From assembly GCF_044324785.1 (NCBI RefSeq), contig NZ_CP172131.1: DNA of 8,910 nt. One strand, written 5' to 3'. This document shows positions 1 to 8,910 of the stretch, piece by piece. Under the pieces are notes generated by a model. It saw nothing but the letters and a program-made list of their open reading frames with translations, searched no databases and had not been told where the DNA came from. The DNA comes from Escherichia coli (GTDB lineage: Bacteria; Pseudomonadota; Gammaproteobacteria; Enterobacterales; Enterobacteriaceae). The position numbers were made by a program, and so were the translations under genes. Numbering within the stretch: position 1 is the stretch's first letter; every line of letters begins with the position of its first letter.

Positions 1-69
1 TATTACCTTTCGAAGAAATTTTTGACATCCTCTACGCCCTGAAGGACCGGGTTTTACGGCGTACCAGAT

Positions 70-95
70 AAAAAAACCCCTCTACTGAAGAGGGG
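70..95 (-). terminator. Intrinsic terminator-like hairpin (minus-strand orientation)
   Basis: 7-bp GC-rich stem cccctct/agagggg (77-83/89-95) with 5-nt loop; the A-run at 70-76 on + gives a T-run after the hairpin on the - strand. Confidence 0.5.
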
Positions 96-218
96 TAGTG
101 TAAGGAACTTGCTGATTTTCTTGATATTATTAACCATCAATAACTGAGCATACAAAAAATAACAAAACTCTGACACAGATACAACCATCCCTCTTTGTAT
201 AAGACCGATGTGCATCTC

Positions 219-302
219 AAAAAAGAAGCGTGTTTCTGGAACACAGAACAACAATGCACATTGTAGCCAACAAATTCACACCAGAAACACGCTCTGTTTT
301 TT
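219..302. repeat. Long inverted-repeat element A: 13-bp perfect arms flanking a 41-nt loop, with A-run and T-run on the outside
   Basis: agcgtgtttctgg (227-239) is the exact reverse complement of ccagaaacacgct (281-293); aaaaaa at 219-224 and tgtttttt at 295-302 make the unit symmetric and terminator-like in both orientations. Confidence 0.6.
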
Positions 303-372
303 AATTTACACAAGAATATATGTCTGGAAAATCAGGAAGAAGAAATTAATGGGCATTCTGTATACGAAGGGA

Positions 373-434
373 GAGCGCGTTTCCGGTGCCCCATATTAGA
401 TATTATCCCTGCAACAAACACCAGAGACGCGCTC
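373..434. repeat. Inverted-repeat element B, related to element A
   Basis: Arms gagcgcgtttccggtg (373-388) and caccagagacgcgctc (419-434) pair over 16 positions with one mismatch and one G-U wobble, around a 30-nt loop; arm sequence is a variant of the element A arm. Confidence 0.55.
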
Positions 435-469
435 ATAATTCTTCTAGCGTAAATGATCCTTTCAGGCAA

Positions 470-497
470 GAAAAAAGCCGTGATTCTGTATCACGGC
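470..497 (-). terminator. Intrinsic terminator-like hairpin, strongest in minus orientation
   Basis: 8-bp stem gccgtgat/atcacggc (477-484/490-497), loop tctgt; aaaaaa at 471-476 gives a T-run on the - strand; a weaker T-rich tail (cttaatttta) follows on +. Confidence 0.45.
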
Positions 498-896
498 CTT
501 AATTTTATCGAAAACACGGATTTTAGTATGCACATGACTGTACTCCTGTGGAGTACAAGGAAATCATAATCAGCGACCAAACCATTTATCAACAGAAAAC
601 CAACATATTGATGTTATTTTTGTGACAAATGTTACAAATTCGAAACCACTGTATTTTTACTGCAACAAAATCTGGTTGATCTACAAGTTACACTGGGGTA
701 AAAAGTTGTCCGGAATGTTTCTGCGTAGTAAAGCCTCTAGCCGGATTGCCTTTGCAAAAACGCAGGAACGTTCCCCCCTTCATCAGTACTCCTGACGCTG
801 TAAGGAGCTGACTGATGCAGACAGGGCTGATGATATCTAATAAAAGCTATCTCATTTTTGCGCGTACATAAAATAAATCAGGCACTTCCCTACACT

Positions 897-925
897 CCCC
901 CTCCGGAATTGAGGGGGTTTTCTTT
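897..925 (+). terminator. Rho-independent terminator
   Basis: Stem ccccctc/gaggggg (897-903/911-917), 7-nt loop, followed by ttttcttt (918-925). Confidence 0.6.
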
Positions 926-1041
926 ACAATGTAAATAAATTGCTTGCGTAAAGTTCAAAAAAACTGCAAATTTTTACTGTAGTGTCGAGCTTCATGTAGC
1001 TCACCAGGGCATGGACTAAAAAGAAGTAAACCCATCTTTTA

Positions 1042-1067
1042 CCCCCCCTTATACGGGGGGTTCTTTA
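1042..1067 (+). terminator. Rho-independent terminator-like hairpin
   Basis: C-run (1042-1048) pairing with G-run (1055-1060) across loop ttatac, followed by ttcttta. Confidence 0.5.
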
Positions 1068-1361
1068 TAGCACAAAGAACACTTATAATTTATCATCTCA
1101 CAGCTATAAATATAAAAGAATAATATTCTAAACTACAGTTATTTATGCAGAACATAACATCAAACTCACAATAAATATAAAACAATTATTTTATAACTGT
1201 TCACTTATTATATTCAGACATATCAGAAACACGACTCAATTCTTTTTTATTTAACAAAATCCATAAAAAACTTATGGTTGAAATCACATTTAAACTGTGA
1301 AGGATATCATCCGGAGAAATTTTTCAATCCGACACTCCATAGAATGGACCTTTAAGACTTT

Positions 1362-1389
1362 ATCCTCATCATGTATGAGGATTTTTTTT
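1362..1389 (+). terminator. Rho-independent terminator
   Basis: Perfect 8-bp stem atcctcat/atgaggat (1362-1369/1375-1382), 5-nt loop, then a run of seven T (1383-1389). Confidence 0.7.
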
Positions 1390-1520
1390 CTGGCAAACAG
1401 TATCTTTCAGTAATCCTTGCTCAGTTCCGATTCTGACGTATCCCCGTGTGGATCTGAAAAGGAGATAATTACGCTCTGTGGCCAACAGGAATAACTCAAG
1501 CAGCTCCTCTCTGATACCAT

Positions 1521-3703: not shown

Positions 3704-3895
3704 GTGACTAAACAGGAAAAAACCGCCCTTAACATGGCCCGCTTCATCAGAGGCCAGACATTAACGCTGCTGGAGAAACTCAACGAACTGGACGCGGATG
3801 AACAGGCAGATATCTGTGAATCGCTTCACGACCACGCCGATGAGCTTTACCGCAGCTGCCTCGCACGTTTCGGGGATGACGGTGAAAACCTCTGA
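3704..3895 (+). CDS. rop: Rop/Rom, RNA I-RNA II pairing modulator, 63 aa
   Basis: GTG start at 3704 preceded by GGAGG (3694-3698). The translation VTKQEKTALNMARFIRGQTLTLLEKLNELDADEQADICESLHDHADELYRSCLARFGDDGENL matches Rop as I recall it from pBR322 except for one residue (G for S at position 17). Confidence 0.95.
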   Translation: MTKQEKTALNMARFIRGQTLTLLEKLNELDADEQADICESLHDHADELYRSCLARFGDDGENL

Positions 3896-4755: not shown

Positions 4756-4863
4756 ACAGTATTTGGTATCTGCGCTCTGCTGAAGCCAGTTACCTCGGTT
4801 AAGCAGTTCCCCAACTGACTTAACCTTCGATCAAACCGCCTCCCCAGGCGGTTTTTTCGTTTA
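4756..4863 (+). ncRNA. RNAI: RNA I antisense copy-number control RNA (about 108 nt)
   Basis: 5' region acagtatttggtatctgcgctctgctgaagccagttacct is identical to ColE1/pMB1 RNA I as recalled. Three stem-loops are retained, including ggttaag...cttaacc and the terminal hairpin aaaccgcctccccaggcggtttttt acting as terminator. Confidence 0.8.
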
Positions 4864-5104: not shown

Positions 5105-5446
5105 ATGAGTTTAAGATACTACATAAAAAACATTTTGTTTGGCCTATATTGCACACTTATATATATATACCTTATAACAAAAAACAACGAAGGGTATTAT
5201 TTCCTAGCGTCAGATAAGATGCTATACGCAATCGTGATAAGCACTATTCTATGCCCATATTCAAAATATGCTATTGAACACATATTTTTTAAGTTCATAA
5301 AGAAAGATTTTTTCAGAAAAAGAAAAAATCTAAATAATGCCCCCGTGGCAAAATTAAACCTATTTATGCTATACAATCTACTTTGTTTGGTCCTAGCAAT
5401 CCCATTTGGATTGCTAGGACTGTTTATATCAATAAAGAATAATTAA
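5105..5446 (+). CDS. imm: Colicin E1 immunity protein (Imm), 113 aa integral membrane protein
   Basis: Translation [44 protein letters not shown]... matches the colicin E1 immunity protein as recalled; SD gagg 8 nt upstream; convergent with cea, with the two stop codons overlapping by 4 bp. Confidence 0.95.
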
Positions 5447-7008
5447 ATACCCAACACATCATTTATAGTATTAAGTTTATTCTTGTCAATAAAGGCACAT
5501 AGAATGCCTGTAACAATAGCAATCCCCCAGATACCTAATGTAGTTCCAGCAAGCACACTAAAAAGTAAAACAACAATATAACTAACTCCAGCATCTACAG
5601 TTTTCTTCTCTAATGTAAGAAATAGTGGCTTCCAGTCACCTGTATCCTTAATTTTTAGGATATCAGATACCACATCATATCCAAAAGAAACATGTCCCGT
5701 AATCTTCAAGTACTTAGCAAACTGATCTAAATGCTTAGCCCAGTCTTCATACTTAACCGATTCCAGTGCATTGAAAATCGCATCACGGTCTGCTTTGCTG
5801 AATTTCTTATTTAAAACATCCTTGTATTTTTCAAAAGCAGCTAGAGCTTCATTCACATTGCTGATTTTCTTACCTTTAGACTTATCAGCAAGTTCCTGTG
5901 CCATTTTTGAATATTTTTCACCATATTTTTCAGATAGCGTTTGATAAAAGCTAACTGTTGCATCCACAGCATCCTTAATCTGCGAGTTCAGGAGATTAGT
6001 CTGCGCTGTTTTCAAATTTTCTTCAGATTCATGAACACGTAAAACAGCTGTATTACGATTATTATTAGCCTGAGACATAGCCCCCTGAATTCCATTTATC
6101 TCAGCATTAAGTTGGTTAATACGCGTTTCTGATGCTGTTACCTGTTTTTGTTTTTCCTCCATAATCTTACCGGCTCCCGTCCGTCGACTGGTGGCATAGA
6201 AAAAAGGACGACTCTGAAGCGGATCATTAGCTCTTGGTGACAATTTTTTGACCAGTTCATCAAGTTCCTTATATTTAGCAGATGCCTGAGCCAGCTCATT
6301 TCGTTTTCCGGACAGCGTATTCATTTCTGCATCACGGGCATGAATACTGGAGCTTAAACGGGTATTGAGAGTCTTAATCTCTTCATCCACTTTCGCCAGC
6401 TCAGATTGTGCAGCAGCAAGATTTTTTTGTGCCACCTCCACTGCCCGGGCCTCTTCATTCAATGCTGCCAGCCGTTTCTCTTCAGCTTCAGCCAGTTTCA
6501 ACTGGCGTTCTGTTTCAGCCTGCTCCTTCTCTATCTCTTTACGTCGTTGTTCTGCCTCCTGAAAAGCCTTTTCCGCAGCTTCCGCTTCTTTACGGGCTTT
6601 TTCTTCTGCTTTTGCAAGGCGCAACCGCTCTGCTTCTGCCTGCATCGCTGCATTATTGGCATGAGCCAGGTCAATAACCTCCGGATGAGTGGAATTATGA
6701 CGAAGCGCCTCATTCACAATATCCTTCAGATGTTGAGTCAGCGCATCCCGGTTTGCTTTTGCTTTAGCCTGTGCTTCTGCGGCAGCTTTTGCCCGGGCAG
6801 CCTGTTCTGCCTGCGTTTTCTTCAATTGAGCAGTAGACCATTTAGCTGTGGCATGAATGGCTGCAGAACTTTCACTTTTGCTACCTCCAGTTCCACCACC
6901 GCCGCCAGAGCCACTCCCGTCTGGATTACCATTCAAAAGAGTAATGATTACCTGCCCCTTATCATCATAAGGAACACCATCTTTATAGTACGCTACAGCT
7001 GTTTCCAT
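5443..7008 (-). CDS. cea: Colicin E1 (pore-forming colicin), 521 aa
   Basis: N-terminus [39 protein letters not shown] (Gly-rich translocation domain), a long Ala/Glu/Lys-rich coiled-coil central region, and a C-terminal channel domain with the hydrophobic hairpin [33 protein letters not shown]; SD gagg 8 nt upstream. Confidence 0.95.
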
Positions 7009-7055
7009 TATAAAATCCTCTTTGACATTAAAAACAAATAGTTAAAAGCAATATA

Positions 7056-7086
7056 CTGTATATATAACCACTGGTTTTATATACAG
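7056..7086. promoter_or_regulatory. Two overlapping LexA (SOS) boxes between the cea promoter and start codon
   Basis: On the - strand the sequence reads CTGTATATAAAACCAG followed by TGGTTATATATACAG: the first is a perfect CTG-N10-CAG box and the second overlaps it by one base, the standard colicin dual-box layout. Confidence 0.85.
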
Positions 7087-7090
7087 CTTA

Positions 7091-7119
7091 AAATTACGCC
7101 GCTGCATTTTCCCTGTCAA
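7091..7119 (-). promoter_or_regulatory. cea (colicin) promoter: -35 TTGACA (complement of 7114-7119), 17-bp spacer, -10 TAATTT (complement of 7091-7096)
   Basis: Consensus -35 with a 17-bp spacer, immediately upstream of the LexA boxes and about 85 bp upstream of the cea ATG. Confidence 0.75.
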
Positions 7120-7138
7120 CCCTGTGGATTTTCATTTT

Positions 7139-7154
7139 TGTGAAAACGATCAAA
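7139..7154. promoter_or_regulatory. Putative cAMP-CRP site (tgtga-aaacga-tcaaa) in class I position upstream of the cea promoter
   Basis: 9 of 10 match to TGTGA-N6-TCACA; centred about 62 bp upstream of the inferred transcription start; consistent with the known catabolite sensitivity of colicin E1 synthesis. Confidence 0.5.
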
Positions 7155-7267
7155 AAAACAGCCACCCACACCACGTGCTATTCCCACCCGATGCCACAAA
7201 AACCAGCACAAACATTACCGTTCTCCGGCCCCAGTATGTTTTACTGAAACCATGATATGAGACATTA

Positions 7268-7705
7268 ATGGGACACTGTCACTTCATGGCATGGCACACA
7301 CTCCAGAACGCACTGAAAATGACAGGCAGATCGCGTTCACAGTTTTACCGTGATATGCGCGCAGGCCTTGTCAGTTATCGTACAGGCCAGGACGGACGGC
7401 GGGAGTTTGAAACCAGTGAACTGATCCGGGCATACGGCGAATTAAAGCAGGATGAGACACCAGAAAGGCACAGTGCGGGACAGGCAGAAAATCCACATGA
7501 TCAGCAGACAGAACGCATTCTCCGGGAGCTGAATGAGCTGAGACAATGCCTGACACTGATGCTTGAGGACAAACAGGCACAGGCTACGGAACGCCGGCGC
7601 CAGGAAGCCGAACGGGAACAGCTACATAAAGAGATAGAGCAGCTCAGGCAGGCACTGGAGCAGGAAAAAAAACGGGGATTCTGGGCCAGACTGTTCAGCC
7701 GGTGA
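7268..7705 (+). CDS. Hypothetical protein: N-terminal helix-turn-helix-like segment plus charged coiled-coil C-terminus (145 aa from the first ATG)
   Basis: ORF with an AlpA/MerR-like HTH-looking segment (MTGRSRSQFYRDMRAGLVSY) and an E/R/Q-rich heptad-like C-terminal half. None of the three candidate starts (7268, 7286, 7319) has a good SD, so start and expression are uncertain. Confidence 0.5.
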   Translation: MGHCHFMAWHTLQNALKMTGRSRSQFYRDMRAGLVSYRTGQDGRREFETSELIRAYGELKQDETPERHSAGQAENPHDQQTERILRELNELRQCLTLMLEDKQAQATERRRQEAEREQLHKEIEQLRQALEQEKKRGFWARLFSR

Positions 7706-7788
7706 GCACCGACTGCAAGTGATGATAAGATAGTCAGCGGTTAAATATAAGTCACTGAGTACAAAGATTTAAAGGTAAGGAGACACTC

Positions 7789-8208
7789 ATGAGACGTTCC
7801 GGCGGCACACTGTATCTTATCGCCCTGCTGACAGCGGCAACGGTCCTGACAGCCTGCACGCCAAAGGGCAGTGTGGAACAACATACCCGGCATTACGTTT
7901 ATGCATCAGACGATGGTTTTGATCCTAACTTTTCCACCCAGAAGGCCGACACAACACGAATGATGGTGCCTTTTTTCCGGCAGTTCTGGGATATGGGAGC
8001 AAAGGATAAAGCGACAGGAAAATCACGGAGTGATGTGCAGCAACGCATTCAGCAGTTTCACAGCCAGGAATTTTTAAACTCACTCCGGGGCACAACTCAA
8101 TTTGCGGGTACTGATTACCGCAGCAAAGACCTTACCCCGAAAAAATCCAGGCTGCTGGCTGAGACGATTTCTGCGGTTTATCTCGATGGCTACGAGGGAA
8201 GACAGTAA
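7789..8208 (+). CDS. Predicted lipoprotein, 139 aa, function unknown (candidate entry-exclusion-type protein)
   Basis: Strong SD (taaggag, 6-nt spacing) and a signal peptide with lipobox (MRRSGGTLYLIALLTAATVLTAC, Thr at +2). The stop lies 5 bp before the cer core. Confidence 0.7.
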   Translation: MRRSGGTLYLIALLTAATVLTACTPKGSVEQHTRHYVYASDDGFDPNFSTQKADTTRMMVPFFRQFWDMGAKDKATGKSRSDVQQRIQQFHSQEFLNSLRGTTQFAGTDYRSKDLTPKKSRLLAETISAVYLDGYEGRQ

Positions 8209-8212
8209 GTGG

Positions 8213-8242
8213 ATTTACCATAATCCCTTAATTGTACGCACC
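8213..8242 (-). other. cer-type XerC/XerD core recombination site for plasmid multimer resolution
   Basis: atttaccataatcccttaattgtacgcacc is the exact reverse complement of the ColE1 cer core as I recall it: GGTGCGTACAA (XerC arm), TTAAGGGA (8-bp spacer), TTATGGTAAAT (XerD arm). Confidence 0.85.
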
Positions 8243-8420
8243 GCTGAAATGCATTCAGCGCAATCACGGCAGCAGACAGGTAAAAATCGCAACAACCCCC
8301 CCGAAAAACTACCGCGATCGCGCCTGATAAATTTTAACCTTATGCATACCTATGCATCCAGGTGAATCACAAGCGAATTTCCTTACTGAGACGACTGAAA
8401 CGGTTTTTTTTCACAATTTT
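8243..8420 (-). other. Inferred cer accessory region (ArgR/PepA-binding sequences; expected location of the Pcer promoter for Rcd)
   Basis: In cer the roughly 180-bp accessory sequences flank the XerC arm, which here faces higher coordinates. A near-palindrome gctgaa-atgca-ttcagc (8243-8259) abuts the XerC arm. The extent is inferred, not seen; Rcd would run on the - strand through the core. Confidence 0.45.
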
Positions 8421-8679: not shown

Positions 8680-8910
8680 TGAACCGCCCCGGAAATCCTG
8701 GAGACTAAACTTCCTGAGAAAGATGTAAACAGGATGACTAAAAATACTCGTTTTTCCCCCGAAGTCCGTCAACGGGCAGTTCGTATGGTTCTGGAAAGCC
8801 AGGGCGAATATGACTCACAATGGGCGGCAATTTGTTCCATTGCTCCAAAGATTGGCTGTACGCCAGAGACCCTGCGTGTCTGGGTTCGCCAGCATGAGCG
8901 GGATACCGGG
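8680..8910 (+). mobile_element. Left end of an IS3-family insertion sequence resembling IS629 (partial; continues past the window)
   Basis: Terminal sequence tgaaccgccccggaaatcctggagactaaacttcctgagaaag starting at 8680 with the 5'-TG typical of IS3-family ends, followed 54 bp later by the orfA start. Confidence 0.8.
8734..8910 (+). CDS. IS3-family transposase OrfA (HTH N-terminal part), truncated by the window end
   Basis: Translation [59 protein letters not shown] is open to the last base; it matches IS629-group OrfA N-termini as recalled. Confidence 0.8.

Follow-up and report, generated by a model that had tools for sequence, protein, structure and literature searches.

The open reading frame (ORF) at the right-hand side of the window, i.e., the whole 8,910-nucleotide stretch of Escherichia coli DNA that was analysed, is exc1 of ColE1-type plasmids, a gene that is already in the databases. 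"Entry exclusion" is a legacy name for exc1 and is unsupported by later work. The Exc1 protein appears to be assignable to the DNA-membrane tethers of the RocS/Par kind, and this assignment, together with its unification with OrfX of Acinetobacter plasmids, appears to be new. No link of exc1 or orfX to RocS or Par was found in the literature search. On balance, the findings slightly favour a role of Exc1 as a bitopic DNA-to-membrane tether for plasmid maintenance and not as an entry-exclusion factor. The analysis established the identity and conservation of the gene, the fold class, the similarity of the tail, the natural exchange of the tail for a transmembrane helix, the remote profile similarity to Par, and the synteny, and from these we infer the DNA binding, oligomerisation, membrane binding, and maintenance phenotype of Exc1.

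Identity of exc1, its start codon and its name

The window was a circular permutation of the 8.9-kb ColE1-type colicin plasmid pSMS35_8 (E. coli SMS-3-5). Positions 7000–8300 were 100% identical to pSMS35_8 and to a number of 8.9-kb plasmids of chicken and human origin, and this 1.3-kb query, which spans exc1, matched 1061 plasmids of PLSDB. The features of the locus are summarized in Table 1. The gene order cea-exc1-exc2-cer was identical in CP122621. The PGAP label of the gene is "hypothetical protein" in the pSMS35_8 lineage and "entry exclusion protein 1" in other records, and Exc1 of this plasmid was 81–93% identical to proteins bearing the latter name. The identity to Exc1 of ColE1 itself (UniRef Q51625, 139 aa; Chan et al., 1985) was 88% over 139 aa, and ColE1 shares the order cea-exc1-exc2-cer. 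The tail allele was A134/S138 in this plasmid, whereas that of ColE1 Exc1 was S/G, and nothing else of substance differed. The sequence-only reading had described an uncharacterised 145-aa ORF divergent from cea that could be a ColE1 exc gene. Both the orientation and the exc identity were confirmed, the latter by the annotation of the same gene elsewhere and by the Exc2-family lipoprotein gene that follows it. "Uncharacterised" still applies to the function, but not to the gene, which has long been known as exc1.

Table 1. Positions of exc1, its protein segments and the neighbouring features in the window.
Feature	Position	Strand	Details	Basis
ORF as listed	7268..7705	+	ATG 7268, TGA 7703-7705, 145 codons	ORF list
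exc1 coding sequence from conserved, most likely start	7286..7705	+	139 aa plus stop	MAWHT invariance, homologue starts, dN/dS
N-terminal MerR/excisionase-type winged HTH, presumed DNA-binding domain	7286..7453	+	residues 1-56	
Linker, poorly conserved, low-confidence	7454..7492	+	residues 57-69	pLDDT <50 at 57-68, weakest constraint
Long helix, presumed coiled-coil oligomerisation region	7493..7663	+	residues 70-126	AF2 helix 70-138, pLDDT ~93
LMLEDK motif inside coil	7556..7573	+	residues 91-96	
C-terminal tail EKKRGFWARLFSR, candidate MinD/RocS-type membrane-targeting kink-helix	7664..7702	+	residues 127-139	
Colicin gene cea	5443..7008	-	divergent from exc1	
exc2, Exc2-family lipoprotein gene	7789..8208	+	83 bp 3' of exc1	NF033828, E 8e-52
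cer XerC/XerD core	8213..8244	-	5 bp past exc2	fuzzy match to GGTGCGTACAA-N8-TTATGGTAAAT
GNGACA cluster, three hexamers (two direct, one inverted)	7259..7282	no strand	weak candidate operator/binding site or part of ribosome-binding region, just 5' of start codon	

The true start of exc1 is most likely the second in-frame ATG at 7286, which would give a protein of 139 aa and not 145 aa, because MAWHT is conserved, the codons upstream of it are variable, and most distant homologues begin at the same position. In an alignment of 15 homologues, M7-A-W-H-T was invariant, whereas the six codons before M7 were not conserved and occurred in some of the sequences only. ColA had no ATG at the upstream position (7268), and the PGAP start was that of MAWHT in ColA, p6148, and one E. 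asburiae plasmid. When 1.84 billion cluster representatives were searched with a profile, 1225 clusters proved homologous at E ≤ 1e-3, and the majority of the full-length distant homologues among them started exactly at the M of MAWHT in the profile.

The expression signals of the gene were less distinct. The Shine-Dalgarno sequence was weak in this plasmid, in agreement with the sequence-only reading, which had seen no convincing one; AGGAG was present in relatives, but it was located 14 nt 5' of the ATG. The consensus promoter scan found no promoter directly 5' of exc1, and the number of sites was equal to the shuffled expectation. A CRP-like TGTGA-N6-TCA was located by eye at ~7139–7154, ~115–130 bp 5' of the ORF. 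The GNGACA hexamers formed conserved columns in an intergenic alignment that was otherwise 61% identical, and GNGACA was not enriched plasmid-wide (17 found versus 13.6 expected). The cluster may be related to the Shine-Dalgarno sequence, since GGAGACACT also occurs 5' of the exc2 ATG; as an operator, it is a weak candidate. No convincing element came out of the other repeat searches in the vicinity of exc1. No terminator was predicted between exc1 and exc2, and exc2 is probably co-transcribed with exc1. Nevertheless, exc2 is dispensable for the conservation of exc1, since exc1 was found without exc2 in ColA, p6148, and plasmids of E. asburiae and K. pneumoniae.

The selection on exc1 is purifying. 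The pairwise dN/dS values among six ColE1-type plasmids were 0.08–0.25, even with synonymous sites near saturation. In the same comparison, the constraint was highest in the winged helix-turn-helix (wHTH) domain and the last 14 residues, and weakest in the linker. Full-length homologues of 120–190 aa were found in many plasmid types, and the domain architecture was conserved from Enterobacteria to Acinetobacter. The purifying selection and the full-length homologues show that exc1 did not arise as a chance ORF and is not part of a larger gene, and both possibilities, which had been raised from the sequence alone, were contradicted. A chance or decaying reading frame would be compatible with the weak Shine-Dalgarno sequence, with the lack of a consensus promoter directly 5' of the gene in this plasmid, and with the frameshifted or truncated copies that exist (e.g., P0116 and remnants in large plasmids). 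Such a frame is scarcely credible against the low dN/dS at saturated synonymous sites, the 1225 homologous clusters, and the conserved architecture.

The name of the gene dates from 1985. In a later plasmid survey, exc1 and exc2 are described as predicted exclusion genes of ColE1 (Chan et al., 1985), which later studies (Yamada et al., 1995) ruled out of ColE1 exclusion (PMC3832669). Homologues of exc1 are still annotated as exclusion proteins despite that work, and "orphan" exc1-like genes are located 3' of rep in Paracoccus plasmids (PMC3832669). At the protein level, matches were obtained in 2185 of the 72,556 PLSDB plasmids (~3%), and 637 of these 2185 (29%) were non-mobilizable; hence, the restriction to conjugative or mobilizable elements that is expected of exclusion determinants was not observed. 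The non-mobilizable carriers included Pseudomonas p76, a Serratia 3.7-kb plasmid, pKP-1PI_ColE2 (Klebsiella), and p2ABAYE (Acinetobacter). In the 1995 study by Yamada et al., the exclusion function was reportedly assigned to mbeD. The persistence of the legacy annotation, the envelope lipoprotein encoded by exc2, and the mobilizable nature of most carrier plasmids would suit the 1985 view that Exc1 and Exc2 together bring about entry exclusion. However, exc1 occurs without exc2, and its homologues occur on non-mobilizable plasmids, so that an exclusion role is unlikely. A cytoplasmic DNA-binding fold is also unlike that of exclusion proteins. Taken with the exclusion of exc1 and exc2 by the later studies, these points make the 1985 assignment, which the sequence-only reading had also considered, very improbable.

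Domain architecture and the C-terminal tail

The structure of Exc1 was evaluated via an AlphaFold2 model, which was built from a 13-sequence alignment and had a mean pLDDT of 83. A beta-alpha-alpha-beta-alpha domain was predicted at residues 1–50, followed by a disordered or low-confidence stretch at residues 57–68 and a single ~70-residue helix at residues 70–138. The HTH-like segment and the long charged coiled coil proposed in the sequence-only reading were thus recovered as the wHTH and the long helix, and this reading of the architecture is considered probable with good confidence. The wHTH was assigned to the MerR/excisionase type, and its matches included the DNA-binding domain of RacA. 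The canonical features of MerR regulators were absent from the model, in which only three helices, and not the four of a MerR-type wHTH with two wings, were followed by a disordered linker of ~12 residues; it had no effector domain, and it lacked both the second wing and the antiparallel dimerisation helix that follows immediately on the domain in MerR proteins. Exc1 itself had no match to Pfam MerR. With Exc1 as the query, Pfam, NCBIfam, and PADLOC yielded nothing above threshold, with only a sub-threshold match to NF038291 and a weak mad1 HTH match. The PDB sequence searches with the close-family and broad-family profiles returned coiled-coil noise only; hence, no solved relative was detectable by sequence. 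In the long helix, the heptads read by eye had in-register hydrophobic a/d positions at I78–L93 and L113–L124. The LMLEDK motif was invariant in one homologue alignment and had the variants LLLEDK, LLEHK, and LLENHQ in relatives. A loose regular expression for this motif matched 40 of 91 family representatives, and the motif was also found in complete plasmids.

The conserved membrane-targeting-like tail was the most informative feature of Exc1, and it was absent from the sequence-only reading. The core of the tail is KKRGFWARLFSR, and the full C-terminus is EKKRGFWARLFSR. The last residues of E. coli MinD, as translated from the MG1655 sequence, are EEKKGFLKRLFGG, with the core KKGFLKRLFGG, and the membrane-targeting peptide of RocS, ...TKKGFFARLFGK, has the core KKGFFARLFGK (PMC13042908). 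On membranes, the RocS peptide forms a Gly-kink and an amphipathic helix, and RocS function depends critically on this Gly (PMC13042908). The Par homologue of pN315 (staphylococcal, DUF536) ends in EPKKGFWSRLFGS, with the core KKGFWSRLFGS, and this tail was invariant in six diverse staphylococcal Par homologues. The tails of Exc1 and Par were identical at 9 of 13 positions (BLASTP), and their alignment had a probability of 86% (hhalign). Moreover, pN in the tail was 0.12–0.14 versus a pS of 0.61–0.74 in the three most divergent comparisons. The C-termini of distant homologues included KKGFWAKLFKS, KKKGFFSRLFGNK, RRGFFSRLFGG, KPGFLRRLFGGK, and KKGFFKRLFS.

A census of the tails was carried out on 91 full-length representatives, each of which came from a separate 50%-identity cluster. 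A MinD-like tail was found in 25 of the 91 and a Trp-rich basic tail (e.g., RRWWPWGKR and PWWKFWKKS) in nine, and ~17 had an acidic F(A/S)D(L/I)(L/I) tail, which is unlike a membrane-binding sequence. W and F made up 12.5% of the last 12 residues versus 1.2% of the linker and coil. At least two W/F together with a net positive charge occurred in 35/91 tails versus 0.4% of internal 12-mers, a comparison whose significance is generous in that the homologues are not independent. A C-terminal transmembrane (TM) helix replaced the tail in P0224 and probably in P0257, and P0250, a close relative of P0224, ended in KSKSFIHRLFGK. P0236 was TM-like by score, but it may be a read-through because GFFGRLFG is located upstream of its TM-like segment. 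In RocS, the replacement of the amphipathic helix by a TM domain kept the localisation and a near-normal function, whereas deletion of the helix abolished the function, and one helix was insufficient for membrane binding (PMC11500499). The natural exchange of the tail and a TM helix in the Exc1 family mirrors this swap experiment (PMC11500499).

The Eisenberg hydrophobic moment was 0.28 for the Exc1 tail and 0.27 for the genuine MinD tail, and 51% of the shuffles reached the value of Exc1. This test was uninformative, since the genuine MinD tail scored the same as that of Exc1; the helix of RocS is also reported to have a low hydrophobic moment (PMC13042908). A beta-clamp-binding motif was considered as another reading of the tail and was rejected, because there is no conserved Gln and because TM helices or Trp-rich basic peptides substitute for the tail in homologues.

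The architecture and the tail also bear on whether Exc1 is mainly a transcription factor. In that case, it would control its own gene or neighbouring genes such as exc2, cea, mob, or rop, the coil would only dimerise, and the tail would at most provide regulated sequestration at the membrane, as in TubY, a MerR-like regulator that binds membranes. The wHTH is of the MerR/excisionase class, the conserved GNGACA repeats overlap the translation start region of exc1, exc1 adjoins the regulated cea promoter, and TubY combines regulation with membrane binding (PMC7762940), all of which agree with regulation. However, homologues persist on plasmids without colicin, exc2, and mob genes, indicating that there is no fixed target gene except exc1 itself. 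In addition, the second wing, antiparallel dimerisation helix, and effector domain of canonical MerR proteins are absent, and the strongly conserved tail would be unexplained by pure regulation. A mainly regulatory role is hence judged unlikely. The reading that Exc1 does nothing but regulate cea or exc2 was rejected because exc1 persists without either gene.

Relationship to known DNA-anchoring proteins

RocS, pSK1 Par, RicO, RacA, and TubY are described as DNA-anchoring proteins with a MerR-type wHTH and a coiled coil. RocS, RicO, and TubY are anchored to the membrane by a C-terminal amphipathic helix, RacA is anchored via DivIVA, and for Par the amphipathic helix has so far been predicted from the sequence only. 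A large-database search with a Par homologue returned near-identical S. aureus proteins only, and the six-member Par alignment was accordingly built from PLSDB. The broad Exc1 profile (89 sequences) aligned to these six staphylococcal Par/DUF536 proteins with a probability of 95.4% and an E value of 1.8e-8 over 110 columns (hhalign), and a single Par sequence gave a probability of 86.8%; coiled-coil composition can inflate both values. The alignment spanned the wHTH and the coil, and LMLEDKQ of Exc1 was placed on LLENQQ of Par, where the invariant DUF536 core starts. The Pfam family DUF536 (PF04394), which has three conserved glutamines, was not detected in Exc1 and ten relatives by HMMER at E ≤ 10, and it was not among the families matched by 89 members of the Exc1 family at E ≤ 0.01, whereas the pN315 Par homologue matched DUF536 at 7e-11. 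Exc1 was not filed as a member of DUF536 because HMMER did not find this family even at E ≤ 10. Exc1 is probably a remote homologue of RocS and Par, and by analogy it may work as they do while standing outside the DUF536 family.

Like Exc1, pSK1 Par and the staphylococcal DUF536 proteins are plasmid-encoded and have an N-terminal MerR-type wHTH, a coiled coil, which is presumed in Exc1, and an LLE(N/D)(Q/K)Q motif. The Par-type C-terminus PKKGFWSRLFGS is almost identical to KKRGFWARLFSR of Exc1. In contrast to Par (~245 aa), Exc1 has 139 aa and lacks the long acidic disordered region; it occurs in Proteobacteria on multicopy ColE1-type replicons, and no centromere-like repeat array was identified for it. 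RocS, which acts in chromosome segregation in Streptococcus pneumoniae, likewise combines a wHTH with a coiled coil and with an amphipathic helix of the MinD kind, the latter two being predicted features in Exc1, and it has GFFARLF where Exc1 has GFWARLF; KK and the kink glycine precede both. However, RocS is a chromosomal DUF536 protein that is under the control of StkP phosphorylation and has ParB as a partner, and such features are neither known nor likely for Exc1.

RicO (S. aureus) and RacA (B. subtilis) are chromosome anchors of Firmicutes, and RacA is anchored through DivIVA and not through lipid; they have specific DNA motifs (ram and ricS), whereas no DNA target was identified for Exc1. 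TubY, a modulator of type III partition, is similar to Exc1 in its plasmid-encoded MerR-like HTH and coiled coil, and its basic amphipathic tail binds membranes only when it is oligomeric. Nevertheless, TubY acts with TubZ, TubR, and tubC, and no such NTPase system was found on the plasmids that carry Exc1; the tail of TubY is a lysine cluster, whereas that of Exc1 is a KKGFxxRLF motif. MinD shares only the tail, i.e., KKGF(L/W)x(R)LF at the extreme C-terminus, and unlike Exc1 it is a ParA-type ATPase with ATP-driven dimerisation.

The match of Exc1 to NF038291 (rep_pAB02_ORF2) had 38.2 bits and an E value of 1.8e-9, which is below the curated cut-off of 85 bits, and relatives reached 60 bits. 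OrfX of Acinetobacter, which NF038291 names "plasmid replication DNA-binding protein", is a homologue with the same architecture as Exc1 and the tail HKKRGLFGRVLNAVF. It differs from Exc1 in its translational coupling to repM, its location on Rep_3 iteron plasmids, and its long Q/T-rich spacer. In the literature, OrfX has no assigned function, and it is reported to be unnecessary for replication, for which rep and the iterons suffice (PMC9927589).

Plasmid context and the proposed role in maintenance

The neighbours of the family genes are all plasmid-maintenance functions. The family genes were located 3' of rep in Pseudomonas p76 and in the pair repM-orfX in Acinetobacter, and they overlapped or adjoined rop in three types of ColRNAI plasmid from Klebsiella. 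The layout of the Acinetobacter plasmids is iteron-rep-orfX-XerC/D site (PMC9927589). In all four metagenomic small-plasmid contigs that carried a recombinase gene, the family gene had a gene for a serine resolvase or small tyrosine recombinase as its immediate neighbour. The cer core was 5–526 bp 3' of exc1 or exc2 in six ColE1-type plasmids and 18–526 bp 3' of exc1 in the five of this type other than the present one; the family gene was 0.7–1.9 kb from a cer-like core in other ColRNAI plasmids. This recurrent link to multimer resolution may arise because stability genes tend to cluster or because the family proteins take a direct part in it.

With a direct role, Exc1 could be an accessory excisionase-like architectural factor for multimer resolution at cer or res, which is regarded as distinctly unlikely. 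Excisionases and recombination directionality factors (HTH_17, TIGR01764) are stand-alone wHTH proteins of ~50–80 aa that act with an integrase or recombinase. Known directionality factors have 60–80 aa and are not known to have a coiled coil or a membrane tail. Furthermore, cer recombination is known to need only the host proteins XerCD, ArgR, and PepA. The distance of 0.7–1.9 kb to the cer-like core in the other ColRNAI plasmids also speaks against such a factor, and chance adjacency is not rare on plasmids of 4–8 kb.

In the membrane-tether mechanism, the wHTH domains of Exc1 would bind plasmid DNA, and the long central helix would drive its oligomerisation. The Lys-Lys-(Arg)-Gly-Phe-Trp-Ala-Arg-Leu-Phe tails would bind the inner membrane with enough avidity only in the oligomer, as for MinD and RocS. 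The plasmid may thus be held at the membrane or cell periphery via multivalent KKxGFWxRLF tails, and this would aid its maintenance, in other words, its positioning and segregation, possibly in coordination with dimer resolution at the adjacent cer. Exc1 would then correspond, in Gram-negative bacteria, to pSK1 Par and RocS, which are systems of a single protein. Against this reading stand the classical description of ColE1 as a multicopy plasmid without a partition function, the acidic tails of ~17 of the 91 relatives, the missing DUF536 match, the possible inflation of the hhalign values, the weakness of the GNGACA cluster, and the negative promoter scan.

A broader, tentative reading, which we hold to be possible but doubtful, is that the Exc1-like proteins, including OrfX and the products of the rop-adjacent HTH genes of Klebsiella, constitute a widespread and so far unrecognised stability system, in which a single protein tethers small multicopy plasmids of Proteobacteria to the membrane. 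Such a system would be homologous to Par and RocS of Gram-positive bacteria and functionally coupled to the adjacent multimer-resolution site (cer, pdif, or res).

Since 1985, exc1 has been marked on the map of ColE1 with a name that was not borne out by later studies, and orfX of Acinetobacter has likewise been filed under an unsupported name, "repA" or "replication DNA-binding protein". The family has matches on about 3% of PLSDB plasmids, and many of these are small plasmids for resistance or colicins from Klebsiella, E. coli, and Acinetobacter. The link to RocS and Par provides a concrete and cheaply testable hypothesis for both orphan genes. It would also extend a class described in Firmicutes to plasmids of Proteobacteria; according to a 2026 preprint, the distribution of this class outside Firmicutes is an open question. 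Should the tether reading be wrong, the corrected start codon and the warning on the "entry exclusion" annotation would still be gained. The link challenges the textbook view that ColE1-type plasmids are stably inherited by copy number and cer only, and if the reading of a widespread tether is true, these supposedly partition-less plasmids would own a positioning and segregation device.

Recombination genes and sites beside the exc1 family

The association between Exc1-family genes and multimer-resolution functions was recurrent. In the window, the stop codon of the lipoprotein gene exc2 was separated from the cer core by 5 bp, and in the ColE1-type plasmids without exc2 (L001-L005) the core was located 18-526 bp 3' of exc1. 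Among metagenomic small plasmids (L013-15, L022, L024-25, L027), the gene directly adjoining the Exc1-family gene encoded a serine resolvase in three plasmid types and a small tyrosine recombinase in one. In Acinetobacter (L020, p2ABAYE), XerC/D sites were also located downstream of the Exc1-family genes. The coordinates of the features are listed in the table.

Features in the window and in the Klebsiella plasmids
Feature	Location	Strand	Remark
Exc1-like gene/rop region	L016 5149-5774		Klebsiella ColRNAI plasmid
Exc1-like gene/rop region	L017 2101-2693		Klebsiella ColRNAI plasmid
Exc1-like gene/rop region	L018 4306-4939		Klebsiella ColRNAI plasmid
GC-rich hairpins (three)	window ~66-100, ~895-925, ~1040-1068		each followed by a T run
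rop	window 3705-3895	+	reading frame intact
RNAI of ColE1 replicon	window 4758-4860	+	Rfam RF00106, 87 bits
Promoter-like site TTAAAA-18-TATACT	window 7028-7057	+	directed at exc1
cer XerC/XerD core	window 8213-8244	-	GGTGCGTACAA-TTAAGGGA-TTATGGTAAAT
cer accessory region	reaching to window ~8430
IS3-family orfA start	window 8734-8910		ends abruptly at window end

Replicon, rop and displaced or truncated copies

The ColE1 replicon type of the window was confirmed by the RNAI match together with the intact frame of rop, which encodes the copy-number modulator. Three types of ColRNAI plasmid from Klebsiella had an Exc1-like gene that was adjacent to, overlapping or co-directional with rop. The 9.3-kb Klebsiella cloacin plasmids (L016, pCAV1417-9294; matches H45-H50 and H97-H99) retained the colicin-promoter-proximal DNA and exc2; exc1 was missing from its position near that promoter, and a second exc1-like gene, which was 47% identical and had a Trp-rich tail, was adjoined by rop and a RelE toxin-antitoxin module. 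Moreover, unannotated stretches of 120-320 bp matching window 7100-7419, that is, the colicin regulatory region and the first ~45 codons of exc1, were present in large, mostly conjugative plasmids (63-169 kb) of E. coli, E. albertii and Klebsiella (H51-H55, H63-H67), and these stretches look like remnants.

The orfA, which we take to be IS629/IS1203-like in appearance, did not continue at window position 1 and, given its abrupt stop, was thus a truncated IS remnant. Window 1-1400 (~1.4 kb) was AT-rich and had no long ORF; it could carry small RNAs or represent cargo debris beside the IS remnant.

Tails and upstream DNA of the family

In about one-fifth of the Exc1 family, the basic aromatic tail was replaced by a C-terminal acidic (S)F(A/S)D(L/I)(L/I)xx(L/F) motif; such members included P0135, P0137, P0140, P0142, P0160, P0202, P0240 and the protein of Pseudomonas p76 (L030 5407-5799). 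This acidic tail does not resemble a membrane-binding sequence; it may be a peptide that binds a partner.

Dense short repeats were located 5' of some distant family genes, with 14 copies of TGTAAAG/CTTTACA within 270 bp upstream of P0224 (L007 4863-5132) and three copies of ATACGACA upstream of P0188 (L009 5950-6000). These repeats resembled the centromere-like repeats upstream of par in the staphylococcal plasmid pSK1; the window showed no comparable array 5' of exc1.

The promoter-like site towards exc1 overlapped the part of the cea promoter around the LexA box, and such sites were as numerous as expected by chance. If this promoter is real, exc1 transcription could be linked to the SOS response.
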